From positions 16,477 to 80,476 of IMG/VR virus record IMGVR_UViG_3300041411_000177: a DNA stretch of 64,000 nucleotides. One strand, given 5' to 3'. The DNA is from a virus (Duplodnaviria; Caudoviricetes). Each line of letters opens with the position of its first letter. Positions within the stretch are counted from its first letter, which is position 1. Position numbers and translations under genes: made by a program. The notes beneath the pieces are model-generated. The model made no database searches. It saw only the letters and a program-made list of their open reading frames with translations, and was not told where the DNA came from. This document shows, one piece after another, positions 16,578-63,019 of the stretch.

Positions 16578-17978
16578 TTAGGCGAAACGAGCTTTTGGTA
16601 CTGCGCCACCGGTTTTCTTGGCCGGTTTAGCAGCGGCGGCTTTGGCGCTAGGCGCTTTAGCTGCTGGTTTTTTCGCGGCTGCTTTAGCTGCTGGTTTTTT
16701 GGCAGCCGGTTTAGCGGCGGCTTTCTTTTCAGCGGCTTTTGCAGGTGCGGCTTCAGCTTTTGCCTTTGCAGGGCGACCGCGTTTCTTCGGTGCTACTGCT
16801 GGTGCAGCTTCGGCTTTCGCTTTAGCTGGACGACCACGTTTTTTCGGAGCATCAGCGGCTGGTGCGGCTGGTGCTTCTTTTTTCGCGGCGGCTTTTTTGC
16901 TTGGAGCTTTCTTCGCCGGAGCGGCTTCAGCTTTCGGCTTGTTTTTCACGCCAGCCGGACGACCGCGTTTTTTCGCTGGTGCTGCTTCAGCGGCTGCTTC
17001 TTTTGCTTTGGCAGGACGACCGCGCTTTTTCGGAGCGGTTGCAGCCGGTGCAGCTTCAGCAGGTTTTGCTTTTGCAGGACGACCGCGTTTCTTCGGAGCA
17101 GTGGCCGGGGCAGCTTCAGCGGCAGCAGGTTTTGCTTTAGCTGGACGACCACGTTTTTTCGGTGCAGGTGCTTCAGCGGCTGCTTCTTTCACCTTGGCCG
17201 GACGACCACGTTTCTTTGGAGCGGCAGCAGGGGCAGCGGCAGGCGCGGCAGCAGCTGGTGCTTTAGGTGCCTTTTTGGAAACACCACCGGCTGCTTTTTT
17301 GGCTGCTGGTTTTGCATTACCGAAATGCTTGGCTGCGATGCGTGCAACACCTTCTTTTGCCGCTTTCGCGCCGATATCAACCAGACGTTTGCCTTGGGTG
17401 CTGATCGGTTTGGCTTTGAAGTTGCTGATCAGGGACTTCAGGGAGAATTTACCCTTTGGTTTGATTTTCGCCATGGCCTTTTTGTGGTTGGCAGCAGCTT
17501 TGGTACGCTCACCGGCGAGGTTCTTACGCTCGTTGGCGTAGCGGCTTTTTTCTGCTTGACGCATCGCGGCGCGTTTGGCTGGCGGCACTTTTGCAGAACG
17601 AATCTTGCTCAGTGCTTTCTGGTGCGATGCTTGCAGACCCAGCGATTTTTTCCGGATTTGTTCACGGATTTGACGCTGTGCAGCAGTCACTTCGCGCTTC
17701 TGACCAGCAGCGTGCGAACCGGCTTGGCGATGCTTGCGGCGTTTTTTCCACGCCATTACCACTTTCTTCGCTTCGGCTTCAGTTGCACCGTGGCGCATGG
17801 CCTTGGTGAAAATCTGGCGAGCGTGGAACTTCAGCTTTTCAGCCGGAGTCATGGTTTTGTAACGCTGCTTAGCAGCCTTGTTCAGCTTGTGTTTGTTCTT
17901 CCGGCGATAGACCTTGCTTTCTTTCCGAGCTTTCAAAGCCTCGGGGCCTTTCGCCTTCTGGACGGTTTTCATGACCAT
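16578..17978 (-). CDS. Histone H1/AlgP-like DNA-binding protein with 7 AT-hooks
   Basis: Seven KKRGRP motifs in Ala/Pro/Lys linkers; KPAA repeats; basic helical N-terminal half; GAGG SD; terminator follows. Confidence 0.85.
   Translation of the reverse strand: MVMKTVQKAKGPEALKARKESKVYRRKNKHKLNKAAKQRYKTMTPAEKLKFHARQIFTKAMRHGATEAEAKKVVMAWKKRRKHRQAGSHAAGQKREVTAAQRQIREQIRKKSLGLQASHQKALSKIRSAKVPPAKRAAMRQAEKSRYANERKNLAGERTKAAANHKKAMAKIKPKGKFSLKSLISNFKAKPISTQGKRLVDIGAKAAKEGVARIAAKHFGNAKPAAKKAAGGVSKKAPKAPAAAAPAAAPAAAPKKRGRPAKVKEAAAEAPAPKKRGRPAKAKPAAAEAAPATAPKKRGRPAKAKPAEAAPAATAPKKRGRPAKAKEAAAEAAPAKKRGRPAGVKNKPKAEAAPAKKAPSKKAAAKKEAPAAPAADAPKKRGRPAKAKAEAAPAVAPKKRGRPAKAKAEAAPAKAAEKKAAAKPAAKKPAAKAAAKKPAAKAPSAKAAAAKPAKKTGGAVPKARFA
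16765..17225 (-). repeat. Tandem coding repeats, seven copies of (P/A)KKRGRPA
   Basis: Degenerate DNA repeats such as GGACGACCACGTTT / GGGCGACCGCGTTT on the plus strand. Confidence 0.9.
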
Positions 17979-18090
17979 CGTAGGAATCCTCGATTAAGAT
18001 GTGTGTAGTTGGCTTAATCGTAGCGCCACGATGCGTACCAACTAAGAATAAATTAGTATTATCGGAATTAATTAAAAATTCCGGTACACG

Positions 18091-19140
18091 TCAGGAGAAC
18101 CCAAGGGCATTTTTGGCTGCCTTTACCTCTTTCATCGTCCATTTGATTTCTTTTAAATCCAAACCTTCTGCACCGAGAAATGCTTCCAATCCGAATTCAG
18201 GGTCAATATCCGCCCGTTCGATTTTAATTGTTTCTATTTCCGAATTATCAATGGCTTTACCGCCAGTCCAGTGAATGCCCCCGGTAATGTTCGGGTATTG
18301 CAGCATTAGGTCGGCAGGCATTGGCACTTCAGGATCGAAATGCAGCTTATAACGGATATTCGAATCGTGCTTCAGTTTCTTCAGGTCATTGAGGTCATTA
18401 ATTGCGAGATTAATCAGGGTAAATCCCGGTTTATTCTCGACGAATTTATGTTCCACTTCGACCTTATCCCCAACCAATGAGACACGTGCATGCACGAACC
18501 CTTTAGGCAGAGCTTCACCGAAATTCTTTTGAAACGGATTACCGCAATAAACCGCCCGCTTCGCTTTCATGTATTGGTATTGATGTATATGTCCGCTGAT
18601 CGTGAAATCGTTTTTATGCGAAACCAATTCATGCTTTGTTTTCAGCGTGCGCCCGTTGTCACCGATTGCCCCAGTATATTCCACGTGAGCAACGTTCAAC
18701 GCACCCTGTTTCTTCGACAGGGTTTTCAGGCACGGGTAAGGCAGCAGATTGACCGGCACACCTTCGATTTCAATGCGCTCTGCTTTCAATACGATTTTGA
18801 GGTTTTTGAATGCGCGAGTCTTGCTCAGACGATACATGAAATTCATCGACATTTTCTCGACGTTTTCAAAGTCGTGATTGCCCGCCACGTAAATGATGGT
18901 CAGCAGCTTGTCGTATTTGTAGAACAGATTAAATAGTTTGGTGTAGGTATCGAATGGCAGATCCGGATTATCGGTAATGTCGCCCGGAATAATCAGGTAT
19001 TTAATACCGTTATTCAAAGCGTACTGCATGATCTTTTCACCCTCGGCCAGAATGCGATCATCGCCATCCGAGAAATGTTTATTCAGGCCGGTCAGGTGCC
19101 AGTCGCTGGTGAATACCGCATCGAACGAAGGATTTGCCAC
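18091..19140 (-). CDS. sbcD: SbcD/Mre11/gp47-like metallophosphoesterase nuclease
   Basis: SDWHL, PGDITD, AGNHDF, AHVE and SGHIHQ motifs. Confidence 0.9.
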   Translation of the reverse strand: MANPSFDAVFTSDWHLTGLNKHFSDGDDRILAEGEKIMQYALNNGIKYLIIPGDITDNPDLPFDTYTKLFNLFYKYDKLLTIIYVAGNHDFENVEKMSMNFMYRLSKTRAFKNLKIVLKAERIEIEGVPVNLLPYPCLKTLSKKQGALNVAHVEYTGAIGDNGRTLKTKHELVSHKNDFTISGHIHQYQYMKAKRAVYCGNPFQKNFGEALPKGFVHARVSLVGDKVEVEHKFVENKPGFTLINLAINDLNDLKKLKHDSNIRYKLHFDPEVPMPADLMLQYPNITGGIHWTGGKAIDNSEIETIKIERADIDPEFGLEAFLGAEGLDLKEIKWTMKEVKAAKNALGFS

Positions 19141-19149
19141 GGGTTATTC

Positions 19150-19434
19150 CTATTTACGTTTCCACGACAGGTCTAATTCGTATCCGAGTTTGGCAGCAAT
19201 CCCGATTAACACATCGAGGTCAGCCTCTGCCAATTTATCGCATTCATCTTCGGGAACAGAGTCGTGAAAATATGGAGTGAGTTCGCGATTTAATGGGCCG
19301 CCCATACGCAGGTACTGGCCTTGCACAAACAATTTGATTCGTGCGCGTTTTTTGTGGTGCGGAATGCCCTTGAGCATGGGCCGTGCCTGCCGCTCTAATT
19401 CGTTGAGAATAATAGCGCACAGTTCGCGTCTCAT
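19150..19434 (-). CDS. Hypothetical protein, possible degenerate XRE-HTH
   Basis: ORF track start 19455; likely start MRRELC at 19434; C-terminal LDVLIGIAAKLGYELDL resembles HTH_37 tails. Confidence 0.6.
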   Translation of the reverse strand: MRRELCAIILNELERQARPMLKGIPHHKKRARIKLFVQGQYLRMGGPLNRELTPYFHDSVPEDECDKLAEADLDVLIGIAAKLGYELDLSWKRK

Positions 19435-19437
19435 CTT

Positions 19438-23965: not shown

Positions 23966-26225
23966 CCGTCACGTAGGAACATTCCGGGTGCATGTGCTTG
24001 CCTTTCTGCGTGATGATAAACACGTTGGGCACCAGCTTGCGCAGGAATGGCACGTAGCGTTCCACGAACAGGCTTGTGGTGGCCGCGTCCATGTGTGCAT
24101 CGGGTTCGTCGAGGATTGCCAGATTAACCCGGCGATCATCTTTCGCCATGATCACACACGCAAGGAAATGCAGCAGACGGAAACTATCAGATTCGGCACC
24201 GGACAATTCGCGCACGTCACTGACGTTGCCTTGGCCCCGGTCAACGATGATATGCACGCCGTCTTCTTTGGCTTCCACTTTGAACTTGAAATTCTCTGCG
24301 AAAATCAGTTGTGCATATTTGTTGTAGTTCTGTTCGAGGCCGTACACAATTTCGTGCATGGCGTGCAGCTTCAGCCCTTTGTTGCTGTAGGCTTTCACCA
24401 GAACTTTGAAGCGTTTCAGTTTCTTGATCAGAGGTTTGTATTCCTCGACCTTGAGACTGGCTTCTTCGCGCTGCTTCGACAGCAGTTTCCATTCGGCCCG
24501 CAACGAGCTATAACGCACGGTTATTTTATGCGCTTTGGAATACTTTTTCTCGACCTTAGCCAACTTAGTTTCTACTGCGGCCAGACGCTTGAGAATGTTG
24601 TCGTCTTCCGGCACTTCTTCGAACTCGGCCAGTCGCGCTTTCAGGCGGCGGGCTTCGTCGATCATTTCAACCTGCTGTTCGATTTTCTCAACCGAGATAA
24701 TCGGTTCCTGCTTCGGACGCTTCGGCTTTTTCAGTTCCTGCATTTGCCCGGTGATTTCGTCGAAGCGCACAGAGTTTTCCATCTGGTCTTCGAGTTTTTC
24801 CAGCTCCGCACGCAGCGCTTTGATTTTCTTGCGCGCAGCGTAGAACGAGCGTTCATCAAACTTCAGATGCTTGATGATTTCCGTGTTTTCCTGCTTCGTG
24901 ATTCGCAGTTCCAACGCATGGATCATCGAGTGTGCTTTGCCTTTGCGCTTCTTGGCTTGGGCAATGGTTTTTTCCAAATCTTTGAGGTTGATTTTCTGCA
25001 TACACGTCGGGCAATTGCCGTCGTCATGATCGTGCAGCAGGTCAGCCAACTTCATTGTCGTTTTTGCCGTGGTGTACTCTTCTTTGAGAGCTTCCATCGG
25101 ATCGACTTTTTCTTTGTTGCACTGCGTCAGGAATTTACGCAGGTCAGGGTCAACATGGTCGTCCAAGTTTTCCAGTTCACGAACAGCCGCGTCGTGCTTG
25201 TCCCGAACTTTCTCAAGGCGTTTGTCTTCCGCTTCGAGTCCGTCCAGTTCTTTCCGGATTTCCTTGATACGTTTCTTCAGTGTTTTGCTGTCGCCACCGT
25301 CGCCCAATTCGTCGAGCTTTTTCACCAGCTTTTTACAGCGGCGATCATACTCGGCATTATCCTCTTCGAATTTCTCCATCGCTTCGTGTAGCTGGTATTG
25401 CTCTTTCAGCGTTGGTTTATCAAAACGGATTTTGCTTTGTAGTTTCTTCAGCTTGTCGTTGGTGGTCGTGTAGAACTCAACCTGCTTCGACAGGCTTTTC
25501 AGTTCCTGCCGCTGCGACTGCAATTTCGTCACTTTCTTGGATTGGGTTTTGACGATTTCTTTCGCTTCGTCAAGTTCCTTTTCCAGCTTCTTGCTCCAGC
25601 CGTTTTTATTCAGGCCGTCGTTGATGTTCATCAGCTGGTGGCTGAACGCATCGGATTTGTTCTGTGCGACTTTTACTTCGTCGATTTTCTTTTCGAAGAA
25701 CCGACGCAGCACGTCGAACTGATCGAGACGCCACACCTCACTGATATACGTCATCCGTGCGCGTGGCGTGCCGTACAGGAATTCCAGTTTCTTTTGCGAT
25801 TGCAAATGAACATAGGAATACCATTCGTCTTGCGTAATCGGAATGATTTGCTCAATTTGCGCACGCTGATTAGCTTGACCCCGAACTTTCAGGTCTTCCC
25901 CATCGCGCCAGATTTGATAGCCACCGGCTTGCTGGCGGATCGTCCACTTGTGCCCGAGGTTGTTAACGTCGAACTCGATAAACGATCCTTTGGAATGGAT
26001 GCGGTTTTTCTTGCGGGTATCTGCCAACGGCGTCTGTTCAAAACGCACGTTAGGCAGCATAGAAAACAGCAGGGATTTACCGGCACCGTTGTTTTGGTCT
26101 TTGGAGATTTGCGAGTCGCGGTTATGCCCGCTAACCGTGGTCAGTCCACAGTTGTTAGTGAAATCAAATTCACCCTTTTTGTACGAAACGATACCGCCAA
26201 AACGGCTACCGGTAATCTCGATCAT
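23919..26225 (-). CDS. sbcC: SbcC/Rad50/gp46-like SMC-family ATPase
   Basis: Walker A NGAGKS, Q-loop HLQSQ, coiled coils with Zn-hook CPTC, signature LSGAE, Walker B/D-loop ILDEPDAHMD, H-loop IITQ. Confidence 0.92.
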   Translation of the reverse strand: MIEITGSRFGGIVSYKKGEFDFTNNCGLTTVSGHNRDSQISKDQNNGAGKSLLFSMLPNVRFEQTPLADTRKKNRIHSKGSFIEFDVNNLGHKWTIRQQAGGYQIWRDGEDLKVRGQANQRAQIEQIIPITQDEWYSYVHLQSQKKLEFLYGTPRARMTYISEVWRLDQFDVLRRFFEKKIDEVKVAQNKSDAFSHQLMNINDGLNKNGWSKKLEKELDEAKEIVKTQSKKVTKLQSQRQELKSLSKQVEFYTTTNDKLKKLQSKIRFDKPTLKEQYQLHEAMEKFEEDNAEYDRRCKKLVKKLDELGDGGDSKTLKKRIKEIRKELDGLEAEDKRLEKVRDKHDAAVRELENLDDHVDPDLRKFLTQCNKEKVDPMEALKEEYTTAKTTMKLADLLHDHDDGNCPTCMQKINLKDLEKTIAQAKKRKGKAHSMIHALELRITKQENTEIIKHLKFDERSFYAARKKIKALRAELEKLEDQMENSVRFDEITGQMQELKKPKRPKQEPIISVEKIEQQVEMIDEARRLKARLAEFEEVPEDDNILKRLAAVETKLAKVEKKYSKAHKITVRYSSLRAEWKLLSKQREEASLKVEEYKPLIKKLKRFKVLVKAYSNKGLKLHAMHEIVYGLEQNYNKYAQLIFAENFKFKVEAKEDGVHIIVDRGQGNVSDVRELSGAESDSFRLLHFLACVIMAKDDRRVNLAILDEPDAHMDAATTSLFVERYVPFLRKLVPNVFIITQKGKHMHPECSYVTVEKYKGVSNVRYDAS

Positions 26226-43408: not shown

Positions 43409-44569
43409 GTGCCCGTGTTTAAGGACATTGCAAGCCGTATCAAGAAAGATCGGCGGTTGGTGCATATCGAATCGCACTTAGGTGAAGTCTATGCGCAGAT
43501 AATGGATAGCTCTATTATCACGCCGAATGGACGTGGCCCTGAATACCGACCGTCTTCCTTTCCAATCTGCCCAATTCTGGTTCACATGCAATTTTTGCAA
43601 GCGGCAGAAAAAGGTTTTTATCAATCGAACATGGCAGCAGGCGGTGGTTATTTCACATCCGTAGGAACTGCCGCTCACGAAAACATTCAGTATTACATGG
43701 GGCAGACACGAAAAGTTTTCGGTGATTGGAAATGCCGAAACAACAAGTGTCAGAAGCATCACGACGCCCGCGATCTTTACGACGAAAAAGGCGTGATGTA
43801 TCGCAAAGGTAAACTGACGACAAAAAACACCACGAACAACCTGTGCCCGGATTGCGGCATTGCTTGTGAGTACGTGGAAAAATGCATCGACTATTTTGGT
43901 CTGAAAGGCCACATCGACTGCATTTATGAAATGCCCGATGGCACTTACTGGGTTCTCGATTACAAGACGACCACGAAAGGCCTGATGAACGGAAACAAAT
44001 TGCCGAAGCGCGAACACCTGATGCAGGTTCCGACTTACTGCTACGTGTTGGAAAAGAAATACAAAATGAAAATCTCCGGATTCTCGTTGCTGTACCTGAG
44101 CCGCGACAACCCGTATGAATTCAAAGAGAAAGCCGAACGCTGGGGCGAGCGCCGCCGCAATGAAACGAAAGCTCTGATTATCCAGCAGAAGAAAATCTAC
44201 CGTTCTGCTGTGAACAGCTTTATCCAGAACAAACCGGAACTCGCGATCAAGTGCAAACCCTGCAAAGCACCTGATGATTATGAACGCCTCATGCCCGCGT
44301 ATGAGCCGTGTCCGATGGAAAAAGTTTGCTTCAGTAAACGCGACCTGAAAGACAACATGCTGCATGCGCTGAAGCCTGAGCAACTGATCAAGGTACTCAA
44401 TATCACGAACAACATGGAAAACTATGTTGAAGAAGACGTGATGGAACCACTCAAGAAAATCCGCGACAAGCAAAAGAAATTGAAAGCGTCTTCCTCCGAC
44501 CTCAAACTGCCGTCGGCCAAGGCGAAAAAGAAAAAGACTTCTAAACCTTTGAGGCTGACCAAGAAATGA
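43409..44569 (+). CDS. Cas4/RecB-like PD-(D/E)xK exonuclease
   Basis: PSSFPICP, GTAAHE, GHID, LDYKTT, QVPTY; C-terminal CKPC...CP...C; extra CxxxxC/CPDC insertion. Confidence 0.82.
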   Translation: MPVFKDIASRIKKDRRLVHIESHLGEVYAQIMDSSIITPNGRGPEYRPSSFPICPILVHMQFLQAAEKGFYQSNMAAGGGYFTSVGTAAHENIQYYMGQTRKVFGDWKCRNNKCQKHHDARDLYDEKGVMYRKGKLTTKNTTNNLCPDCGIACEYVEKCIDYFGLKGHIDCIYEMPDGTYWVLDYKTTTKGLMNGNKLPKREHLMQVPTYCYVLEKKYKMKISGFSLLYLSRDNPYEFKEKAERWGERRRNETKALIIQQKKIYRSAVNSFIQNKPELAIKCKPCKAPDDYERLMPAYEPCPMEKVCFSKRDLKDNMLHALKPEQLIKVLNITNNMENYVEEDVMEPLKKIRDKQKKLKASSSDLKLPSAKAKKKKTSKPLRLTKK

Positions 44570-45249
44570 AAATCTCCATTCGCTTGAAACCGCAACAGGT
44601 TGCAACTGCTGCCGGTGCATACAGCGCGCCGGATATGGGTGCAGCCGAACAGCTGCAATACTCTGACGACGAACTGGCCGAACGCGACAAGGAAGAAAAA
44701 GCCCGTCAGGAAGTAGCGGATGCAGAAGAGCGCAAGAAGGCCGCCGAGAAACAGAAAAAGGACGCGGCAAAAGCTCCGCAAACTCCGAAGGAAAGCGGCG
44801 AAGATGCTGGCGATAAATCTGACGACGACGAAGAGGGCGACGAATCTGAAGAGGATGAAGAATCCGACGAATCGGGCGATGACTCTGAAGAATCCGACGA
44901 TGATTCCGACGATGATTCCGACGACAGCGACGACATGGATGATGAAGGCGACGAAGAGGCAACCGCCGCTTCGAAACTCCCGTATCCAGAAGCGCAATCG
45001 AAACGTAAAGCATCGGATTTGATTCCAGCCGAAACCATGGAAAAGGTTGTCGATCCTGAAGTCCAAAAGGAAGAGGACGAAAAGAAAGAAACTGAAGCGG
45101 CGCAGGCCCGGCCATTGAGCAAAGAAGATCCGAACAACAAAAACTCGCAAGGTAAAAAGCTGGATAAAGAAAACGGGAATACTTTGGTGGCGACCGCTGC
45201 CTCTGTTTCCGGGCTTCCTTATCCTGATGTGAAACTCCGCAATCGTTAA
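44566..45249 (+). CDS. Acidic low-complexity protein (possible internal head/scaffold-like protein)
   Basis: D/E/S-rich core, three ATAA motifs, two LPYP(E/D) motifs. Confidence 0.8.
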   Translation: MKISIRLKPQQVATAAGAYSAPDMGAAEQLQYSDDELAERDKEEKARQEVADAEERKKAAEKQKKDAAKAPQTPKESGEDAGDKSDDDEEGDESEEDEESDESGDDSEESDDDSDDDSDDSDDMDDEGDEEATAASKLPYPEAQSKRKASDLIPAETMEKVVDPEVQKEEDEKKETEAAQARPLSKEDPNNKNSQGKKLDKENGNTLVATAASVSGLPYPDVKLRNR

Positions 45250-53152: not shown

Positions 53153-53746
53153 ATGACCGAAGTAGCCGTAGTAAAACTGTCGAAGAACGAAACCGCCGCT
53201 GTCAAAGCTGTTGCCAACGCCGCCAAAACCCTCGACGGTCTGAAAGCTGACCTGAAAGTTGCACAGGGCGTTGTTCGCACCAACTCGAAACTGGCTCTGA
53301 CCACCGCGCCGAAAGTCGTCGCCAATCTGCAAAAGAACGCCGGTTCCGTTGTCGAAACCCTGCAACAAGCTGTGCTGGCCGCAACCGCCGAACTGACCGA
53401 CGCGAAAAACGCGCTGACCTCCGTTCGCACTACCGAAAAAGCAGAAGCTGTGCAGAAAGCAAAAGACGCCAAAGCCAAACAGCGCGAAGCTGACAAAGCA
53501 GCCGCTGTAAAAGCCAAAGCCGCAACCGCACCTGTCGTCGCCGCTGCCCCGGCCAAAGCTGCCAAAGCTCCGAAAGCTGCCGCCGTTGTTGCACCTGCTG
53601 CCAAAGTTGCCAAGGCTCCGAAAGCCAAAGCTGCCACCGTTGCTGTTGCCCCGGCCAAAGCCGTGAAAGCCAAAGCGCCGAAAGCTGCTGCCGTTGCTGC
53701 GCCGAAAGCCAAAGCTGCAAAACCTGCCGCTAAAGCCAAAGCCTAA
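53153..53746 (+). CDS. Histone H1/AlgP/PhaF-like Ala-Lys-Pro protein
   Basis: Helical N-terminal 110 aa, then AKAPKA(AAV) repeats; extreme codon bias; own terminator. Confidence 0.8.
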   Translation: MTEVAVVKLSKNETAAVKAVANAAKTLDGLKADLKVAQGVVRTNSKLALTTAPKVVANLQKNAGSVVETLQQAVLAATAELTDAKNALTSVRTTEKAEAVQKAKDAKAKQREADKAAAVKAKAATAPVVAAAPAKAAKAPKAAAVVAPAAKVAKAPKAKAATVAVAPAKAVKAKAPKAAAVAAPKAKAAKPAAKAKA

Positions 53747-53776: not shown

Positions 53777-53806
53777 AAAAGCGGCCTAGAAATAGGTCGC
53801 TTTTTT
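53777..53806 (+). terminator. Intrinsic terminator
   Basis: AAAAGCGGCCTA-GAAA-TAGGTCGCTTTTTT. Confidence 0.88.
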
Positions 53807-53826: not shown

Positions 53827-54627
53827 ATGTTCAACGCTAGCGGAATTGTTCAAAACATTCTGAGTGGCAGCCTCACCTATTCTGAATTGCTGCGCGATAT
53901 CGCCACTGTGCAGCAAATGAGTTCGAATGCCATCGGTGCAGATTACATTGTCAATATGCTGGCCGCTCTCGGTTGCCGTCTTTCTCTCGACGGTGAAAAA
54001 CTTGTCACCGTTCCTTTTGACGCCAGCGTTACCGTTACCACACCAAATCATATGCGTGCGGCTGGGAATGACCTCCCGTTCATTAAATCCGAGCCGTTCG
54101 TTTTGCTGCCTAACTGGCAGGATCTTTATGCACGCGTCGAAGTTATGCTGCCCGGCAAAACGGAATCGCTGCTGGTGATCGCGTTCCGTGAAACCCTGAA
54201 CATGCAAAACGCATTTGCTAATCAGGGCCGCCGCGTTCCATCGCAAATGGTTTGCTTCCCTGTCATGAGTTTGAATGACGGCAAGGTCAAACTGGCGCGC
54301 ATGTCGTTCTTCAGTTTCGTTAAGAGTTCGGCGGCCTTCTTGAATGGTGGAGCCTGCACCATCGTCGGCCACCACGCCCGCAAACGCATTCAAGCCTGCA
54401 CCGCGCAACTGAATCACAGCCATGACCCTGTTAAGGCATTGGCCGAAGCTGAAAGCGCGTTGCAATCGTTGCGCGCTGATTACCAGCAACCTAATACCCT
54501 TACCTATGAACAGGGCTGCATGCTGCGTACCTTGCTGGATACCCGCAAGCGCAATGCAAAGGCCATTCAGGCAGGTATGGGCACCGTACACAATGAACCA
54601 AAGGGCCAAGGCGCTAATCCCGCTTGA
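53827..54627 (+). CDS. Hypothetical protein
   Basis: 266 aa, GGAG SD. Confidence 0.75.
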   Translation: MFNASGIVQNILSGSLTYSELLRDIATVQQMSSNAIGADYIVNMLAALGCRLSLDGEKLVTVPFDASVTVTTPNHMRAAGNDLPFIKSEPFVLLPNWQDLYARVEVMLPGKTESLLVIAFRETLNMQNAFANQGRRVPSQMVCFPVMSLNDGKVKLARMSFFSFVKSSAAFLNGGACTIVGHHARKRIQACTAQLNHSHDPVKALAEAESALQSLRADYQQPNTLTYEQGCMLRTLLDTRKRNAKAIQAGMGTVHNEPKGQGANPA

Positions 54628-54847: not shown

Positions 54848-56785
54848 ATGACTATTATCGCTAAAGGCCAGACCGTAAACGTAAACCACGGCAAAAAAGG
54901 CATCATCAAAGAAGTGGTGAAAATCGTCCTGAAGAACGGCACCGTCCGTACCGAGGAAGGTTCCGAGTTCAACACTGCCGACATGTACAACAAAGGCAAA
55001 GGCAAGTTCGTTGACCTGAAAGGCGGCGTTTCTAAAAAGGCCCCTGCTGCAAAAGCTGCTGCTGAACCTGCTGCAAAAGCAGAACGTCCGGCCCCGGCTT
55101 CCGTCACGTTCAAAGAACTGGACGAAAAAGCGCGCAAGATCAACGGCATCGAAATCGAAAGCCTGAAACGTAAAGAAGGCATTGTCGTTCTGGTCGATGG
55201 TTCCACCGTTGCCATCGCTGACATTTCCCGTAAGGGTAAAGGTTACGGCGCTGACGTTGTGACCCCTGCACCGAAAGCTGGCAAAGCTCCAAAAACCGCC
55301 GCCGCAAAACCTGCTGCTGAAAAAGCACCGGTTAAAGCCTCGGTCAAGCCATCCGCAAAAGCAGCCCCTGTAAAAGGTGGCGCTGTGAAGAAAACCAAAG
55401 CAGCCGACACCGATATGGCGTTTGACGAAGGCGCTCTGTATGGCCCGGCAGGTCAATACGAAACTTCCGACGTTCGCGGTAAAGTGATCGACTTCAACGG
55501 CGACGATTTGAAAGTCGTGAAAACCTTTTCGTCCGGTCGTTGTGTTCTGGAAGACGGCGAAGAATTCCAAGTTGACGAAGTGCGCAAAACCGTCAGCGGC
55601 AAATTCTGCGTGTACTCCGACGAATACATTGCAGAACTGAAAGAACTGCACGAACAAGCCAACACCCGTGCGAAAGCAATTCAACAGGCCAAAGACACAC
55701 CGAAGCCTGTAACTTCGCGCAGCTTCAAGAAAAACGTAACGCAGGTTCTGGTCGGCAAGAAATTGCAAACCGTTACCAACGTTTACACCAGCGGCACCGT
55801 TCAACTGGATTCCGGCGTGCGTATCGCAATCGCTGACATTCAGCAAGTCGGTGGCAAACTGGTTTACAACGGTTCGACTGCTGCAAATCAGAAATCGGGT
55901 GGCGCACTTCCGAAAACCCGTGAAGTTCCACCGTTCGAGAAAAAGATCATTCGCGTTGCCGAATTCGACGACGATACCGCTACCGATATTTGCGACCTGC
56001 TGGAAGAGCAAGTGCGCAAAATCATGGCCGCCGAATACGACGTGAATCTGGTTTCTGCGTTCGCCGGTCGCGGTACTGATATGTGTACGATTGCATTCAG
56101 TTTCGCAGTTGCCGACGCCGATCCTGCGCGCATTGCAGAAATGGTTAAACGTCAGCACAGTGAAAACTTTGTGGATGACGAAGGCACCGACCTCGATGCC
56201 CACCAGCTGACCCCTAACGGTTCTGACATTCCTGAAGAGGAAGAGGAACAAGAAGAGGAAGAGCAGGAAGAAGAGGAACAGGAGGAAGAAGAGGAACAGG
56301 AAGAGGAAGAGCAGGAGGAAGAAGAGGAACAGGAAGAGGAAGAACAGGAAGAGGAAGAACAGGAAGAAGAGGAAGAATTGGAAGAAGAGGAAGAATTGGA
56401 AGAAGAGGAATCGTCTGATTTCCCTGACGACCAAACTTTCGCACAAGACGTGGAAACTTCTTTCCCCCTCGATCCTTCGCAGCTGATCGACGACGCATCG
56501 GAACGTATGTCGCGCATTATTTCGACTCCGAAATATCAGGGCGCAATGCGTAAAGCCGCTGCTGCGTGGTACGAATCGCAAGATGCGTACACCAACTTCG
56601 GTTATTCCATCGAACCGGGCTTCACTGTTGACGACGCGGGCAATAGCTACCTGTTCATCGGCCTGCGCGCCGACGCACAAGGTCAACAAGCTGTCGGCCT
56701 GATCAACGTGGCGACTCAAACCGTTCGTTCGGTGCCGTTCGAGAAATTCGTTGAGATTTGCGAAGCCAACGATATCGAAATCTAA
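54848..56785 (+). CDS. Multidomain protein: four ~45-aa beta repeats, Lys/Ala linkers, poly-Glu tract
   Basis: ATG 54848 after GGAG; repeated G.V.L.DG....aDi...G.K modules; EEEEQ array; strong codon bias. Confidence 0.82.
   Translation: MTIIAKGQTVNVNHGKKGIIKEVVKIVLKNGTVRTEEGSEFNTADMYNKGKGKFVDLKGGVSKKAPAAKAAAEPAAKAERPAPASVTFKELDEKARKINGIEIESLKRKEGIVVLVDGSTVAIADISRKGKGYGADVVTPAPKAGKAPKTAAAKPAAEKAPVKASVKPSAKAAPVKGGAVKKTKAADTDMAFDEGALYGPAGQYETSDVRGKVIDFNGDDLKVVKTFSSGRCVLEDGEEFQVDEVRKTVSGKFCVYSDEYIAELKELHEQANTRAKAIQQAKDTPKPVTSRSFKKNVTQVLVGKKLQTVTNVYTSGTVQLDSGVRIAIADIQQVGGKLVYNGSTAANQKSGGALPKTREVPPFEKKIIRVAEFDDDTATDICDLLEEQVRKIMAAEYDVNLVSAFAGRGTDMCTIAFSFAVADADPARIAEMVKRQHSENFVDDEGTDLDAHQLTPNGSDIPEEEEEQEEEEQEEEEQEEEEEQEEEEQEEEEEQEEEEQEEEEQEEEEELEEEEELEEEESSDFPDDQTFAQDVETSFPLDPSQLIDDASERMSRIISTPKYQGAMRKAAAAWYESQDAYTNFGYSIEPGFTVDDAGNSYLFIGLRADAQGQQAVGLINVATQTVRSVPFEKFVEICEANDIEI
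56234..56410 (+). repeat. (E4-5 Q/L) coding array, 59 codons with 49 Glu
   Basis: GAAGAGGAAGAGGAACAG-type repeats. Confidence 0.92.
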
Positions 56786-56851: not shown

Positions 56852-58006
56852 ATGAGCGTATTTTTCCAAAATCTGGCAGCTGCTGCGCACAACGCAATCC
56901 ACGCCTACTACATGAGCCTGTTTTCGCTGGCACTGGGCACCAACGCCGACGAACTGGCCGACTGGTACAAACTCGATCCGACCGAACTGGAACTCGACGA
57001 CGGCGTGGAAGTTTACGCCAAACGTATCACGTTGCCGATTTGGGATTTGGTAAGTCCCGATCATGCGGCTGAAGTCGCCAGCGATTTGATGCTGGAATTC
57101 GAAGCGAAACATAATCTGTTTGTTTGCAGTTACACGGGCGATTCTGAATTCGTGGTTTACATCACGAACGTCGAATGCGAACTGGATAACCTGCGTATCG
57201 CTTTCGAAGACGTGGAAGAAATCGAAGAGGAAGAAGAGGAACTGGAAGAGGACGTGCGTACATCCGAAAGCGGTCGCGTTCTTTCCATCGTTCCACAAAT
57301 CGGCAATCAACAACCAGCGGCCCCGGTTTCGGCTTCTGTTGTAGTTGACGCGGATTTTCCGCCTGAAGAAGACTTCCCCGAAGAACCAGAACAAGCGGCC
57401 CCGGTGACTGCGCAAACGCCTGCTGTGGAACTGGCCGACGCCGATCTGGTAGAGGAAGAGCCATTGCCCGAGGAAGAGCCTGTAAACGAAGCACAGGCAG
57501 CGCCAGTGGCAACCGAAACCGAAGCACAAGGCAATGCCGTTGCCGACGCGTTGAATGGTCAACCCCTGTACGCACAGGAACCGCTGACCACTGACGAAAC
57601 ACTGGCAGTCATTGCAGACCGTCGCGACCAGCAACCTGAAGCCGAACCAGCAACCGACAATGCACAGGCTGAAGCCATTGCAGAAGCCGACCAAGGCCCG
57701 GTGAAAGAATCGGCGGAAATCATCGCGGTGATTCACGCAGAAAAAATGCAGCAGATTATCGGCATGTTGCCTTCGGACACCATGCACGAAATCGACGACC
57801 AGACCGGCGTCCTGACTCTGATGTACAGCCGCGAAGTGAATGGCGAAAACGTGGATTACGTGCGCACCATTCGCATCGAAAACGAAAACTTCCAAAACAT
57901 TCGTTACGTGGATGTTTTCTATGTCGAGGACGAAGCGGGCGTAGTGCTGAATCGCACGTCTAACGCGACCATCGTTGTCCGTCAGTTGGATAACCTGATC
58001 GTTTGA
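56852..58006 (+). CDS. Acidic hypothetical protein with Glu/Pro/Ala-rich disordered centre
   Basis: 384 aa, GAGGT SD, strong codon bias. Confidence 0.8.
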   Translation: MSVFFQNLAAAAHNAIHAYYMSLFSLALGTNADELADWYKLDPTELELDDGVEVYAKRITLPIWDLVSPDHAAEVASDLMLEFEAKHNLFVCSYTGDSEFVVYITNVECELDNLRIAFEDVEEIEEEEEELEEDVRTSESGRVLSIVPQIGNQQPAAPVSASVVVDADFPPEEDFPEEPEQAAPVTAQTPAVELADADLVEEEPLPEEEPVNEAQAAPVATETEAQGNAVADALNGQPLYAQEPLTTDETLAVIADRRDQQPEAEPATDNAQAEAIAEADQGPVKESAEIIAVIHAEKMQQIIGMLPSDTMHEIDDQTGVLTLMYSREVNGENVDYVRTIRIENENFQNIRYVDVFYVEDEAGVVLNRTSNATIVVRQLDNLIV

Positions 58007-58022: not shown

Positions 58023-58028
58023 CAGAAT

Positions 58029-58060
58029 GGAAGGGTTACTTCGGTGGCCCTTCCTTTTTT
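58029..58060 (+). terminator. Intrinsic terminator
   Basis: GGAAGGG-TTAC-TTCG-GTGG-CCCTTCC-TTTTTT. Confidence 0.85.
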
Positions 58061-58080
58061 CATTTCTGGAGCCTGCACAC

Positions 58081-58530
58081 ATGACCCACCGCACACGCAG
58101 CGATAAAATCGAAAATATTTTCATGGCGCTCGGTCTGTTGGAAAACAGCAAAGAGTTCGAACGTGAAATGGTTTTGACCTCTTTGATCGGCCCACACATT
58201 CTGGTTTCGATTCCGAATCAATACGACGCCGTTATCACGGTTCCGTTCGAAGGCCCGGTTGTCATTTGCGAAATCAACGGGAGCGTCCAGCGCTTTGCAG
58301 AAACCGGCGCGTTCCTCGAATTCTTCCGTCGCACTTTGGAGCCTGCGCGCCCTGCCACACTGGCCCTTGCTGCTGTAGTTCCTGACAGCACCCGCGTAGG
58401 CAATTCCGTTGTGTTCGAGCGCCGTGGTGTTGTGTACACCTGCGTCGAAGACAAAGGGATTTTCGAAGTACGTTACAACAACCAAAAAATGAGCATGGCC
58501 CACGACGACATTGCAATGGCGTTGGCTTGA
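58081..58530 (+). CDS. Hypothetical protein
   Basis: Likely start MTHRTRS (58081) after GGAG. Confidence 0.72.
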   Translation: MTHRTRSDKIENIFMALGLLENSKEFEREMVLTSLIGPHILVSIPNQYDAVITVPFEGPVVICEINGSVQRFAETGAFLEFFRRTLEPARPATLALAAVVPDSTRVGNSVVFERRGVVYTCVEDKGIFEVRYNNQKMSMAHDDIAMALA

Positions 58531-58548
58531 TTGACTGAGGGATAAAAG

Positions 58549-58851
58549 ATGGAACCGGCAGAATTTGCTTTGCACGTTTTGAACTTTGCAGAGCATGACC
58601 CGATTGCGATCACGAACCATCCCCTTGATATGCATCCCTTCGAGGCTGCTATCGCCCTCAACAACGCACTGGCCCACGTGCCCGGTGGTGATGCCGTAAA
58701 AGTTTTCGGCACCACTGGCGACACGATTATTATTGTGCGCGTGTCCGTTATTCCTGCCTATCGTGAAACCATTGAATTCGGTTGCGATAAACGACACGCC
58801 GAAGAAATTAAACAAATCTGCGAGCGCCTGAACAATGCAGCTACTGACTAG
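58549..58851 (+). CDS. Hypothetical protein
   Basis: 100 aa, GAGG SD. Confidence 0.7.
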   Translation: MEPAEFALHVLNFAEHDPIAITNHPLDMHPFEAAIALNNALAHVPGGDAVKVFGTTGDTIIIVRVSVIPAYRETIEFGCDKRHAEEIKQICERLNNAATD

Positions 58852-60121
58852 CACAATCCATCACCTGTACGAAAAAGGGATTCTCAAAACGTGCGACCCT
58901 TCGCATGACTTCGAGTCATATTCGTATGAGTACATGGGCCGACTGGTTAAACAGCCTGTTACGGTAAGTACGCGTATGAAAAAATCAGACCTGATTAACA
59001 TTGTGCGCAGCGCGTGCGATGGCAACTTAGCAGACATGGCGACGGTCGCTATGCTGTTTAATGTTGGCTATGGCATGCCGTTTGATCGTGAACGTTCCGT
59101 GGCATGGATGAAATATTCGCTGGTCGAGCCTTCGAGTCAGTTCGACGCTGAATGTGAATACGCAATTAAGTGCGCCGAGGAAGCACCGGACGTTTGCTAT
59201 CCGGACTCGCTGATTTATCCATGCCTCGATATCGTTCGAAAGATCCACGATCACAAAAACACCGGCACCCTTCACGTGGGTTGTTCGGTTCTGCCACGAT
59301 TAAAAGGCGTGCGCGTGTATTTGATTTATCGCACGCAGCCCGGCGTCACTCCGCATTTGTATGCGGGCTTTTATCGCGATAAGGAAAACTATTTCCTGTC
59401 GTTGGATAAGCTCGTTGCGTTGGGAGCGCCCCGTTACTTTGGCGAGATTCGCGGTCGCGTAACAATGACCGAATACACGCCGTTCGGACACAATGCAATG
59501 TACGTCGTGGCCGGTACTGTCTACATTCCAGAATCAAAACGGAATGGTGATCGAATCGGCCAAGTGTTTAAACAATTCCTCACGGATGAAACGCCAGCGC
59601 TCACACCGCAGCACTTCAACCCCGAGGACGACATTGCGTTGCAACAGGAAGCGCAAAAAACTGTAAATACTCTTACACGGTCACAGAGTCGTTTGGCGGA
59701 ACAAGGGAAGCCTATTCCATTGGATTCGCTACAACACTTGCAGAAGGCCAAGAAGCGTTTGGATGAGCTAACGGAACGGGTTAAGAACTCCAACCCCGAA
59801 GCCGAATACGCTGCATACCTTCAAACGCGGCCAGAAGCGCGCCTACGCTTCGTTGCCACTGAACTGTACCGGTGGAACCGCGACGGGCTTAAAACCGTTC
59901 CAATGGGACGACAGCCGTTTTTGCTTATGTCGTCGATGGGCTTCCGTAGCCTTACGCATCCTGCACTCGAAATAGTGGGCCACATCGCTGACACGACAGA
60001 CGTGCGCGAAACTGTAAATAAATTCGAGAAAGCATTAGATGCGAAGGTATCCGCTTTAATCATTCAACCCGGCCCCGAATCGACGGTGCGGTTTGTAGAC
60101 GTTACGAGGATTGACCTGTGA
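58835..60121 (+). CDS. Degenerate NAD-dependent DNA ligase adenylation-domain-like protein with SEL1-like repeat
   Basis: LPRLKGVRVYLIY aligns to LigA motif I (EPKxDGlavsLlY); VVAGTVYIP to motif III (EVRGEVyMP); RLRFVA to IIIa; AMLFNVGYGMPFDRERSVAW resembles SEL1. Confidence 0.55.
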   Translation: MQLLTSTIHHLYEKGILKTCDPSHDFESYSYEYMGRLVKQPVTVSTRMKKSDLINIVRSACDGNLADMATVAMLFNVGYGMPFDRERSVAWMKYSLVEPSSQFDAECEYAIKCAEEAPDVCYPDSLIYPCLDIVRKIHDHKNTGTLHVGCSVLPRLKGVRVYLIYRTQPGVTPHLYAGFYRDKENYFLSLDKLVALGAPRYFGEIRGRVTMTEYTPFGHNAMYVVAGTVYIPESKRNGDRIGQVFKQFLTDETPALTPQHFNPEDDIALQQEAQKTVNTLTRSQSRLAEQGKPIPLDSLQHLQKAKKRLDELTERVKNSNPEAEYAAYLQTRPEARLRFVATELYRWNRDGLKTVPMGRQPFLLMSSMGFRSLTHPALEIVGHIADTTDVRETVNKFEKALDAKVSALIIQPGPESTVRFVDVTRIDL

Positions 60122-61062
60122 ATAACGATATTTCCTATCAGGAACAACACAAGCAGCAATTGCAATCGAGCGAGCGCCAATTGGGCACCGCCGCTGAACC
60201 CGAGAATGTAACTCGCGGCAAAGCAAACATTCCGGTTGAAACAGCCGGTGAATTTCCGGTGCGGATCGTACCGCGTGTGGAAGTGGTGTTCGGCGCTGTG
60301 CTGAATACTGTAAATGAAGTGGTAGAAGCACATAAGACGTTCACACCTGTGATCGCTTATGACGCCGGAACCTTCGAAGAGGGCGAAGACGAAATTTCGT
60401 TGTACCGTCCGCTCACTCGCAAAGTAAACGGCGTTGCAATTCAACCACTCACTTCGCTTTATGAATTCCTTCAGGGCCTTGAGCTTGAACAGTACCTGAT
60501 CGTTTGCGAAGACGCGGTATTGCAACAACGCACCCAAGGCCTGATCGACACACTGCATGCGCAATTGCAGGATGCGTTCGGCGGCGTGGCTTTCGAACAG
60601 CACGGCGTTGATTTCTCCATTGCACGCGGTGATTATTTCTCTACCAGCGTCACGCAGTACACCGCAGAGAAATCGAAAACTGTAAATATCATTCATCTGG
60701 TAATTCGCGTACATATCCACGCTGCCAGCTTGACCAATACGTCTGCCGATCCTGCCGAAGCGATGACCACCTTTGATTTGGGGTATCGGCAAGTGATCAA
60801 AAACTTTGCAGCTGCTACCAAGATTCAGACGCAGATTGCAGTTGCATTTGATGTTTCTAATTTCACTGTACGGCCTAACCTTCTGTCACTGTTCTCCGCG
60901 CTCTGTGCGGAACCGGGAGCCGAAGCCGACGCTGTAAACAAAGACGATCATATCGACGCGAACGTAATTGTTTCCGTCGCACTGACAAACCCAAACGCAA
61001 AACTTCGCACCGCACCGAAGAAAAAGGTCGGGCAAGTTAAGCCCAAGCAAAAAGGTAGTTAA
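60118..61062 (+). CDS. Hypothetical protein
   Basis: 314 aa, GTGA overlap, basic C-terminal tail. Confidence 0.75.
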   Translation: MNNDISYQEQHKQQLQSSERQLGTAAEPENVTRGKANIPVETAGEFPVRIVPRVEVVFGAVLNTVNEVVEAHKTFTPVIAYDAGTFEEGEDEISLYRPLTRKVNGVAIQPLTSLYEFLQGLELEQYLIVCEDAVLQQRTQGLIDTLHAQLQDAFGGVAFEQHGVDFSIARGDYFSTSVTQYTAEKSKTVNIIHLVIRVHIHAASLTNTSADPAEAMTTFDLGYRQVIKNFAAATKIQTQIAVAFDVSNFTVRPNLLSLFSALCAEPGAEADAVNKDDHIDANVIVSVALTNPNAKLRTAPKKKVGQVKPKQKGS

Positions 61063-61067
61063 TCCTC

Positions 61068-61628
61068 ATGGCTAAGCCAGAAAAGAAAGTAGCAACAAAA
61101 GCACGTACCAAAGTTTCGCGTTTGGACAAAGCCCTTCGCAAGCTGACCGGCACCACTGCCAAAACACCATTCAGCATGAAGACCGGCCTGTTCACCGTGA
61201 CCGGCTACAGCGTCGTACCGAACGAAGTACCGGGCTACCTGATCGACCGCACCGCGACCCACACCATCTATCGCCACAAGGCCACCAGCGCCTCGAAGAA
61301 AATGGTTGTGTCCGTGTTCGCAAACTCCGACGTTCTGCAACTGCTGGGCGGCAAAGAAGGCGGTAGCGTTACCGTTCGCCGCCGTTCCGCTTTCACCAGC
61401 GCAACCGGCACCCTGAAATTCGACGGCACTTCGGTAATCGTTACCGACGACAACGGCGGCGTGGCCGTGTTCGATCTGGCCGCTGGCGATTACGAAATCA
61501 AAGCATTCGACACCGAAGGTTCGCAGGCTTCGGGCCGTGGCGTGAAATCGGCTTCCGACGATGGCAAGAAAAAGAAAGCCAAAGTCACCGATATCAAGGA
61601 AGGCGGCAAAAAGAAAGTAAAAAAGTAA
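61068..61628 (+). CDS. Hypothetical beta-rich protein with basic N- and C-terminal tails
   Basis: 186 aa; MAKPEKK... and ...GKKKKAK..GGKKKVKK; strong codon bias. Confidence 0.8.
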   Translation: MAKPEKKVATKARTKVSRLDKALRKLTGTTAKTPFSMKTGLFTVTGYSVVPNEVPGYLIDRTATHTIYRHKATSASKKMVVSVFANSDVLQLLGGKEGGSVTVRRRSAFTSATGTLKFDGTSVIVTDDNGGVAVFDLAAGDYEIKAFDTEGSQASGRGVKSASDDGKKKKAKVTDIKEGGKKKVKK

Positions 61629-61685
61629 CTGACACCCGGTACATGGGCGACCTCGACTGAGAGCGCCCGTGACCCACTCGCAGTA

Positions 61686-61732
61686 AACTGTAAATACACT
61701 GTACAAGATGTGCAGTGCAGAAAACTGTAAAT
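61686..61732 (+). promoter_or_regulatory. Tandem AACTGTAAAT motifs flanking a 9-bp hairpin
   Basis: Motifs at 61686 and 61723; CACTGTACA-AGA-TGTGCAGTG at 61697..61717; 39 nt to ATG 61771. Confidence 0.68.
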
Positions 61733-61770
61733 CTCTTTTAGCAACATCAATCAATAGATCGGAGTTATTC

Positions 61771-62295
<525 letters not shown>

Positions 62296-62360
62296 TTACA
62301 GTCTGATCTTCTGATCTGATCCAAAGAAATTCTCCGACTTCTTTCGTCCTGAGATTTCTA

Positions 62361-62390
62361 GGAACCCGGTGTAACAGCCGGGTTTCTTTT
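62361..62390 (+). terminator. Intrinsic terminator
   Basis: GGAACCCGG...CCGGGTTTC-TTTT. Confidence 0.8.
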
Positions 62391-62434
62391 CGCCAAAAAA
62401 CGACTTTTTCAAAAATATAGGGAACACCAAGATC

Positions 62435-63019
62435 ATGGCTAAGAATGACCTGACCATTAACGGCAAATCCGAAATCGGTCGTCTGCGTAAGCAGCAGCGC
62501 GCTCTGGAACAATCCAGCAAAGCGCAAGAAAAAGCGCTGGAAGTAACCAACGGCCAAGCGACCGAAGTTGCCGAACAAATCGCTACCCTCGAAGCACAAC
62601 TGAGCGGCGAGCCGGTCAAAGCTGCCAAGGGCGGCAAGAAAGCTGCCAAGGCCGACGCCAAGCCAGCCAAGGGCAAGAAAGCTGCCAAAGCTGACGACGA
62701 AAAGCCAGCCAAGAAATCCAAGAAAGCCGACAAGGAAGACGACGCCAAACCGGCCAAGAAATCCAAGAAAGCCGACAAGGACGAAGCTCCTGCCAAGAAG
62801 TCCAAAAAGGCTTCGAAGGAAGTAGAAGCACCGGCCAAAAAGAAAAAGGCCAAAGCTGAAGCCGAAGCTCCGGCCAAGAAAAAGAAAAAAGCAAAGGACG
62901 TTGAAGCCGACGCTCCGAAGAAAAAGAAAAAGTCGAAAGACTCCGACACCAGCAGCAAGAAAGTGAAAAAAGGCGACAAGAAAAAAGCCAAGAAAGAATA
63001 CGACGAATTCGAAGACTAA
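62435..63019 (+). CDS. Histone H1/HC2-like protein: N-terminal coiled coil plus KKxKKA repeats
   Basis: 194 aa; PAKKSKKA(D/S)K repeated; acidic end EYDEFED; terminator follows. Confidence 0.82.
   Translation: MAKNDLTINGKSEIGRLRKQQRALEQSSKAQEKALEVTNGQATEVAEQIATLEAQLSGEPVKAAKGGKKAAKADAKPAKGKKAAKADDEKPAKKSKKADKEDDAKPAKKSKKADKDEAPAKKSKKASKEVEAPAKKKKAKAEAEAPAKKKKKAKDVEADAPKKKKKSKDSDTSSKKVKKGDKKKAKKEYDEFED

Follow-up and report, generated by a model that had tools for sequence, protein, structure and literature searches.

Strongly charged proteins that associate with nucleic acids are known from two settings. One is the pairing of H1/HMGA-type polycations with acidic chaperones such as prothymosin-alpha and nucleoplasmin/Nap1; the other is the packaging of basic condensing proteins by viruses, as with adenovirus protein VII, baculovirus P6.9, the T4 internal proteins IPI-III, the phiKZ inner-body proteins and the virion histones of giant viruses. 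Acidic intrinsically disordered regions are described as DNA-charge mimics for basic DNA-binding proteins (PMC10987829). Here we describe a set of eight strongly charged proteins, accompanied by a giant SNF2-family ATPase, in a window of 64,000 nucleotides of viral DNA (positions 16,477 to 80,476 of the IMG/VR record IMGVR_UViG_3300041411_000177). As in the H1/HMGA pairing, the set combines a K/A/P-rich disordered AT-hook polycation with a poly-acid protein of near-equal opposite charge (~+100/-100). What is newly added here is that the polycation and the SNF2 giant have orthologs among the virion proteins of phage PaBG.

The likeness to H1 and its chaperones is a functional analogy only: the phage set has no homology to them, contains no Linker_histone, Hc1 or nucleoplasmin domain, and its poly-acid is a near-perfect homopolymer of ~100 residues with a basic N-terminal tail of its own. 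PaBG gp191, the counterpart of the polycation, is basic, present in purified virions, apparently processed by proteolysis and presumably delivered together with the DNA, like the viral condensing proteins listed above, although there is no sequence or fold relation between those and the phage polycation. We know of no phage internal protein with AT-hook and H1-like tail chemistry. K/P/A-rich tails and AT-hooks are shared with the bacterial proteins Pseudomonas AlgP (KPAA repeats), PhaF, Chlamydia Hc1/Hc2 and Myxococcus CarD (HMGA-like AT-hooks), and one member of the set, the AKP-tail protein at 53153-53746, has the coiled-coil plus basic-tail layout of bacterial H1-like repeat proteins; this resemblance is compositional, has no counterpart in Pfam/NCBIfam matches and serves as a lead only. 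Strongly acidic phage proteins of early or middle infection are represented by T7 Ocr and T4 Arn, but these are folded mimics of B-DNA, whereas the phage poly-acid is a homopolymeric tail attached to a small helical domain.

Among known packaged proteins a 221-kDa SNF2-family ATPase is unusual; a predicted helicase is packaged by phiKZ too (PMC13282480). Full-text literature searches returned no description of this charged protein set. Histones and condensates go unmentioned in a 2026 review of jumbo phages, a 2026 paper on SPO1 states that it had remained unclear whether phase separation plays a part in phage development, and a 2025 paper reports an Hc1-type H1-like gene in 'moraphages', another large-phage lineage, where it was speculated to compact DNA for packaging (PMC12619734). 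The view of the initial annotation that no phage system of this design has been described fits the literature searched, bearing in mind that an Hc1-type compaction gene had already been proposed. Viral genome-condensing polycations with acidic chaperones would be a known kind of system that had not previously been described in tailed phages.

By sequence, the window belongs to a Lu11/HRDY3-like Pseudomonas jumbo phage. It shares ~75-78% nucleotide identity with two Pseudomonas jumbo phages, HRDY3 (313 kb) and Lu11 (280 kb), is collinear with their replication/recombination/middle-gene region, and has a GC content of ~0.50 throughout. Lu11, PaBG, NCTB and Dickeya and Erwinia phages make up the 'Lupandier' group (PMC7412058). 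The eight charged proteins (Table 1) are clear charge outliers among the ~73 genes of the window, and all eight open reading frames translate as first annotated. They appear to be lineage-conserved extreme polyelectrolyte proteins of the Lu11/PaBG-type ('Lupandier' group) jumbo myoviruses, probably in two separable parts. Family searches (Pfam, PHROGs, NCBIfam) covered whole proteins and excised globular sub-domains; in Pfam/NCBIfam, AT_hook and SNF2/Helicase_C were the sole families matched by the set, and the PHROG matches of the cassette and its final trio (36478, 22271, 35683) are all of unknown function. The presence of a SNF2 ATPase and a type II topoisomerase in the window, also annotated initially, is borne out, the topoisomerase pair being an ordinary jumbo-phage replication enzyme. 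No tRNA genes that might aid the translation of poly-Glu/Lys stretches are found in the window.

Table 1. Features of the window, in order of position
Feature	Position	Strand	Description
Giant SNF2-family ATPase	2540..8587	-	2015 aa; PHROG 21391
Head-tail connector family gene	12204..13421	-	phrog_17327, E=8.8e-176
H1/HMGA-like AT-hook polycation	16578..17978	-	466 aa, net +111; probable packaged virion protein
Clamp loader	28384-29520	-	Lys-rich extension, disordered, N- or C-terminal
Metallopeptidase	30071-31318	-	Lys-rich extension, disordered, N- or C-terminal
Primase	42214-43356	-	Lys-rich extension, disordered, N- or C-terminal
Cas4-like nuclease	43409-44569	+	Lys-rich extension, disordered, N- or C-terminal
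Separate acidic protein	44566..45249	+	Net -37; adjoins Cas4-like nuclease and primase
Topoisomerase II, both subunits	46499-48607, 48924-50522	+	Lys-rich extensions on both, disordered, N- or C-terminal
AKP-tail protein, first cassette gene	53153..53746	+	Coiled-coil N-domain and AKAPKA basic tail, net +25
Near-neutral cassette member	53827..54627	+	266 aa; position and length kept in L009-L015
Bipolar protein (P0006)	54848..56785	+	645 aa, net -55; basic linkers and E-rich array
Acidic protein	56852..58006	+	Net -66; structured ends, acidic P/E/A-rich middle
Four near-neutral cassette genes	58027..61062	+	167, 100, 428, 314 aa; conserved
Trio 1, basic-tailed beta protein (P0004)	61068..61628	+	Lys-rich tails at both ends, net +18; PHROG 22271
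Tandem ACTGTAAAT pair	61687..61732	+	Copies at 61687 and 61724, just upstream of poly-acid start
Trio 2, poly-acid protein	61771..62295	+	Lys-rich N-tail, ~45-aa helical domain, 104 consecutive Glu; net -103
Trio 3, K-repeat protein	62435..63019	+	N-terminal coiled coil, KKSKKA K-rich mixed-charge repeats; net +26; PHROG 36478

The evidence for packaging comes from the PaBG virion proteome, a 14-band Coomassie/matrix-assisted laser desorption ionization analysis of CsCl-purified particles (PMC7412058, Table 1). Band 1, labelled 'RuvB helicase-like', is gp202, encoded by PaBG_00202 (coding sequence 148541..154450; 221,159 Da), the ortholog of the SNF2 giant. The slot taken by the AT-hook gene in the window is filled in PaBG by the gene that immediately follows SbcD, PaBG_00191 (coding sequence 139631..140629), which encodes a 332-aa K/A/P-rich polycation of net +88 with a computed mass of 35,272.47 Da; gp191, listed as 'Unknown' at 35,272.92 Da, is among the 14 virion proteins and was seen in several bands, implying proteolysis (PMC7412058). 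Both proteins were matched to that list by locus tag, coordinates and mass, and the N-terminal domain of gp191 aligns to the polycation of the window (BLASTP E=1e-5). The PaBG orthologs of the polycation and of the SNF2 giant are thus virion proteins. Furthermore, the connector-family gene lies between the two genes, an order kept in PaBG, Lu11 and the Erwinia phage pEa_SNUABM_7, and this context suggests a virion-type module. The PaBG trio (21,331; 17,383; 21,761 Da), its AKP-tail protein (14,452 Da) and its bipolar protein gp131 (48,572 Da) correspond to none of the 14 bands, weak evidence against the cassette being a main constituent of virions. The case that the proteins are only virion structural parts, which the initial annotation had named as fatal to its proposal, therefore bears on the polycation and the SNF2 giant, while five cassette counterparts are absent from the bands.

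The polycation itself consists of a basic helical N-terminal domain, seven KKRGRPA AT-hook cores, a K/A/P tail and a conserved GGAxPKxxF C-terminus. The repeated R-G-R-P cores with basic flanks that define AT-hooks are present, and the protein passes the Pfam AT_hook model (PF02178; E=6.3e-9, 35.1 bits, cut-off 17.4). The helical N-domain and the GGAxPKxxF end are common to a family of 13 metagenomic homologs, in which hooks (RGRP or PGRP) are retained and vary widely in number and type. Orthologs of net +97 each exist in HRDY3 and Lu11, and pEa_SNUABM_7 carries a polycation of net +63 in the same genomic slot; two paralogous basic proteins (+50 and +41) lie near the latter (L016 26357-28490). 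The likeness to H1 is limited to the K/A/P composition of the tail: neither the polycation nor the AKP-tail protein matches Linker_histone (PF00538) or Hc1 (PF07432) in Pfam/NCBIfam at E up to 0.1-10, and the N-domain gave no usable feature match in the ESM Atlas, its structure rows reaching template-modelling (TM) scores <=0.51 to generic helices or barrels. A palindrome, CGGAATT-N7-AATTCCG, is located at 17979-18090 (minus strand), between SbcD and the AT-hook gene. AT-hook proteins bind AT-rich DNA in its minor groove, and Pseudomonas chromosomes are GC-rich. Given the GC content of the window, the AT-hooks should favour the ~50% GC phage DNA over the host chromosome, as a matter of predicted binding.

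Both lobes that define the SNF2 family are recognized above cut-off in the 2015-aa giant: SNF2-rel_dom (PF00176) at residues 908-1099 (E=1.4e-9) and Helicase_C (PF00271) at residues 1360-1457 (E=1.8e-6). The protein is matched in 90 phage records. From this family assignment, chromatin or protein-DNA remodelling can only be inferred.

The second part of the set is a cassette of 11 genes at 53-63 kb, located between a 5'-3' exonuclease gene and sigma/SSB/RecA genes, outside a structural module. Seven metagenomic contigs (L009-L015), reached via homologs of the basic-tailed beta protein, keep the same order: 5'-3' exonuclease, AKP-tail protein, a protein of ~265 aa, bipolar protein, acidic protein, two small genes, a gene of 428 aa, one of ~300 aa, basic-tailed protein, poly-acid and K-repeat protein. 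The 266-aa member of the window has no family match in Pfam or PHROGs, and PHROG 35683 is matched within the near-neutral genes at 58027..61062. In the AlphaFold2 (AF2) model of the bipolar protein, four putative small five-stranded barrels (residues 8-56, 100-135, 212-255 and 298-340) are separated by disordered basic linkers and followed by an alpha/beta domain, the acidic array and a confident C-terminal domain; the barrels, which may be SH3/Tudor-like, are recognised only by the secondary-structure pattern of the model. This protein has only ~9 true relatives among 1.8 billion representative proteins. Its 645-residue model has no significant Foldseek match among solved structures, and a VIA fold search with the whole model was uninformative, since matches to the long helix that is modelled for the acidic array took up the list.

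Closing the cassette, the trio begins with the basic-tailed protein, modelled by AF2 as an all-beta core (residues 40-147; predicted local distance difference test, pLDDT, ~90) between disordered Lys-rich tails. It has 34 homologs, several of them on contigs of 280-320 kb, and a viral structure library places its family in Lu11, PaBG and Erwinia phage Alexandra. Its best structural matches, all weak, are Hfq/Sm/SH3-like barrels: a Foldseek search of the PDB gave nothing at E<=0.001, the VIA-wide comparison with Hfq (Z 5.7, root-mean-square deviation 3.4-3.5 over 59-60 residues) falls within the background range, and the ESM Atlas gave no usable feature match and structure rows of TM<=0.51 to generic helices or barrels. 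At the other end of the trio, the C-terminal tip of the K-repeat protein is acidic-aromatic in all relatives (EYDEFED, DFDDFE, DDFEDFDDLD, DDFEFEME; window 62990-63019, L005 10330-10938, L006 8526-9038) and is similar to the C-terminal tips with which SSB and T7 gp2.5 recruit proteins.

Between them lies the poly-acid, whose 104-Glu tract is encoded by 68 GAA and 36 GAG codons in irregular mixture. Neither the protein nor its N-domain matches Pfam/NCBIfam, histone-chaperone core domains included, and a word-index search with the 72-residue N-domain gave nothing at E<=0.01, the query being too short for the size of the database; its orthologs were identified by genomic position, not by sequence search. 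A complex prediction for the N-domains of the polycation and the poly-acid scored 0.00, a result that counts neither way for binding. Short-read Logan contigs of the probable source run, a rhizosphere metagenome, break at 61968-62298, in the poly-E tract, which makes the figure of exactly 104 dependent on the assembly; the isolate HRDY3 and other contigs have tracts of closely similar length. Apart from the probable source run, the sequencing runs that match the window share small word fractions with it, and of these X2 aligned nowhere and X14 over a 33-base piece only. Four contigs of metagenomic relatives stop inside the poly-acid gene, as expected of an assembly break, and short-read viromes will systematically fragment or overlook such genes. 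An assembly artefact was considered for the tract itself and is ruled out by equivalent tracts in the isolate genomes of HRDY3, Lu11 and PaBG.

HRDY3 and Lu11 each encode syntenic orthologs of all eight charged proteins, charged tracts included, and what is held steady between relatives is their charge. Across the seven contigs, the trio has net charges of +18 to +20 (basic-tailed), -96 to -109 (poly-acid, where complete) and +21 to +26 (K-repeat), while the AKP-tail protein ranges from +17 to +30, the bipolar protein from -38 to -56 and the acidic protein from -65 to -93. In the same order, the trio carries +14, -93 and +31 in PaBG and +11, -84 and +27 in pEa_SNUABM_7, where a 1003-aa protein of net -185 is encoded just upstream of it (L006 2880-5891). 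The poly-acid ortholog of HRDY3 is nearly pure Glu (net -107), that of Lu11 has a mixed D/E tail (net -99), and the values for orthologs as a whole are -107, -99, -93, -84, -96, -109 and -100, with tails either E-only or mixed D/E. Sequences diverge by 40-65%, yet net charge shifts by no more than a few units, and the equal total charge of E-only and mixed tails indicates that selection acts on charge. By these comparisons, it is charge rather than sequence that is conserved in the poly-charged set. The co-occurrence that the initial annotation proposed to look for across related phages holds in Lu11, HRDY3, PaBG, the Erwinia phage and the seven metagenomic contigs. A few kb downstream of the cassette of relatives, near a sigma-factor gene, Pfam matches to the anti-Thoeris proteins Tad2 (Tad2-like) and Tad3 are found (L011 17873-18382 and 19825-20427; L012 16153-16713).

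The cassette also bears signals of strong expression. The phage 9-mer ACTGTAAAT has 17 exact copies in the window, all co-oriented with genes, and 26 matches at <=1 mismatch against 10.6 expected. Six exact copies fall at 59660-61732, so that the peak of promoter-motif density annotated just upstream of the last three genes is indeed there, tandem pair included; Lu11 is annotated with two 'middle/late promoters' at the equivalent site, upstream of gp164. Four of these copies (59660-60687, plus strand), upstream of the trio, fall within coding sequence, that of the 428-aa and 314-aa genes, and such internal promoter density is unusual. Compared with 16 ordinary genes, the basic proteins and the bipolar protein avoid GCG, ACG/ACA and GGA/GGG; the strong codon bias attributed to most of the set stands for these and is weaker for 56852..58006 and 44566..45249. 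Shine-Dalgarno-like sites precede most of the eight genes, as annotated. The claim that most have their own terminator holds in part: clear terminators follow three of the six clustered genes (53777-53804 after 53153-53746, 58029-58054 after 56852-58006 and 63048-63064 after 62435-63019) and one probably follows the polycation gene, the rest having no clear terminator. In a soil RNA-sequencing library, contigs with 95-99% identity to the window map to the three trio genes and not to the 2.9 kb upstream, a weak hint that the trio transcripts are abundant. Tandem promoter motifs and codon bias together argue for high expression of the cassette. In sum, the set is real, looks abundant and is conserved together, as orthologs, constant charge and expression signals indicate.

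Lys-rich extensions are also present on several enzymes of the window (Table 1); Lu11 and HRDY3 retain them, and PaBG and the Erwinia phage have shorter versions. These tails could serve as a charge-based targeting or DNA-affinity tag. Among the other genes, one on the minus strand (26225-28387), adjoining an SbcC-like gene, encodes a 720-aa protein of net -57 with acidic P/E/V-rich linkers between apparently folded domains.

Our tentative preference, to which we would give somewhat less than an even chance, is a system of a packaged AT-hook/H1-like protein that coats the genome, a virion-borne SNF2 motor, and a highly expressed intracellular cassette including a poly-acid chaperone or counter-ion. 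The cargo role of the polycation and the SNF2 giant is read from their virion orthologs in PaBG, and the role of the poly-acid from its constant charge, similar in magnitude to that of the polycation. The polycation would be made late and loaded into the head, where it would coat and charge-neutralise the ~300-kb genome before entering the cell with the DNA. The SNF2 giant, also carried in the particle, would most likely strip, remodel or translocate the coated DNA as it enters. The phage's own promoter motif would drive intracellular expression of the 53-63-kb cassette, whose poly-acid of ~-100 would be a charge-matched chaperone or counter-ion for the polycation, as prothymosin-alpha and nucleoplasmin are for H1 and histones, and may likewise serve the Lys-tailed replication enzymes, while the smaller basic members (AKP-tail, basic-tailed beta-barrel and K-repeat proteins) would bind replicating DNA. 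Observed are the proteins with their charges, conservation and expression signals, and the presence of two PaBG orthologs in virions; DNA binding and chaperoning, the sequence of steps in time and any phase separation are what we infer.

Several points weigh against this explanation. Virion detection applies to the PaBG orthologs and not to the phage of the window itself, and the literature searched yielded no virion proteome for HRDY3 or the Dickeya relatives; apart from synteny, the similarity between its polycation and gp191 is weak, and particles could pick up a polycation of +88 and a DNA motor during purification, either along with DNA or by adhesion to capsids. Staining of poly-acidic proteins is poor, and trypsin cuts Lys-rich ones into very short peptides, so the absence of the other charged PaBG proteins from the bands says little. 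The charges of polycation and poly-acid co-vary over five phages (+111/-103, +97/-107, +97/-99, +88/-93 and +63/-84), a trend that is suggestive only, coming from five genomes that are related and hence not independent in phylogenetic terms. No ACTGTAAAT motif accompanies the polycation gene; together with the palindrome upstream, this suggests that it may be under separate regulation, perhaps as a late gene. The AT-hooks excepted, no fold or family match ties any member to DNA binding or chaperoning, and no experiments on any member were found in the literature searched.

The signals of high expression of the cassette would also be expected if the set served to take over the host, the poly-acids absorbing MvaT/MvaU, HU or restriction enzymes as DNA mimics and the basic proteins condensing or silencing the host chromosome. 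Long acidic tracts characterise Ocr, Arn and other phage DNA mimics, and the Tad2-like and Tad3 genes of relatives place anti-defence functions a few kb from the cassette. However, known mimics are folded proteins with patterned charge and not 100-residue homopolymers, the trio is kept in Pseudomonas and Erwinia phages whose hosts differ in their nucleoid proteins, the AT-hooks are expected to bind the AT-richer phage DNA in preference to that of the GC-rich host, and the polycation is found in virions. We consider this unlikely.

The initial annotation had favoured a shell-less, charge-driven body around replicating DNA that would exclude nucleases and CRISPR, with the SNF2 giant as remodeler. 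In an extension of that model, the Lys-rich tails would be client tags. That the cassette sits among replication genes under the same promoter motif as theirs, that mixed polycations and polyanions of constant charge are conserved, and that topoisomerase II, clamp loader, primase, nuclease and peptidase keep their tails in relatives all agree with it. Moreover, the clade is not described as nucleus-forming, a review placing all known nucleus-forming phages in the Chimalliviridae. Nevertheless, basic tails on DNA enzymes may merely increase DNA affinity, and the largest polycation and the supposed remodeler are virion proteins in PaBG; the conserved charged set of the annotated body remains, its intracellular placement looks unlikely for these two, and the condensate is, to our mind, rather improbable.

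The PaBG virion data lend themselves to yet another interpretation, in which all members are parts of head assembly or of an internal core, the acidic ones being scaffold or ejection proteins comparable to the T4 prohead core or the phiKZ inner body, and none would play a part inside the cell. The presence of gp191 and gp202 in particles and the apparent proteolytic processing of gp191 would suit it, and inner-body-like structures in other jumbo phages are referred to in PMC13282480, with a citation group that includes an OBP/Lu11 comparison. This becomes quite doubtful in view of the cassette proteins, whose PaBG masses (trio, AKP-tail protein, gp131) are absent from the bands, though Lys-rich proteins stain well with Coomassie, and whose genes lie between the exonuclease and the sigma/SSB/RecA genes and not in a structural module.

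More speculative is a two-phase charge organisation, in which a protamine-like complex of the genome with the AT-hook polycation in the capsid would be converted, once inside the cell, by the virion SNF2 protein and the poly-Glu chaperone into a membraneless replication condensate; we give it a slim chance. Enzymes would be recruited through their Lys-rich tails, which resemble nuclear localization signals, and the result would be a second route to a 'phage nucleus', independent of chimallin. Least probable of all is that these are unrelated, fast-evolving low-complexity proteins with no common function, their charge extremes reflecting lineage-wide compositional drift or replication slippage: the failure to obtain family or fold assignments and the highly variable repeat number of the polycation family would fit, but net charge stays steady across the divergence noted above and whether tails are E-only or D/E, Pseudomonas and Erwinia phages share the gene order, GAA and GAG are irregularly mixed in the poly-E tract, and codon bias and dedicated promoters are present.

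If the packaged polycation with its intracellular chaperone is real, tailed phages would count alongside adenoviruses, baculoviruses and giant viruses as viruses whose DNA is packaged with a dedicated histone-like polycation, and would do so with a matched acidic chaperone and with a remodeler carried as particle cargo. It would also offer a tractable bacterial model for polyelectrolyte complexes of the H1/prothymosin type, and would help to explain how genomes of 300 kb are condensed and how incoming DNA might be shielded from defences or from xenogeneic silencers of the host. The conserved Lys-rich tails on replication enzymes suggest, in addition, a charge-based targeting code. Finally, the near-constant net charge of these proteins across deep divergence constitutes a clean natural case of selection acting on charge and not on sequence.

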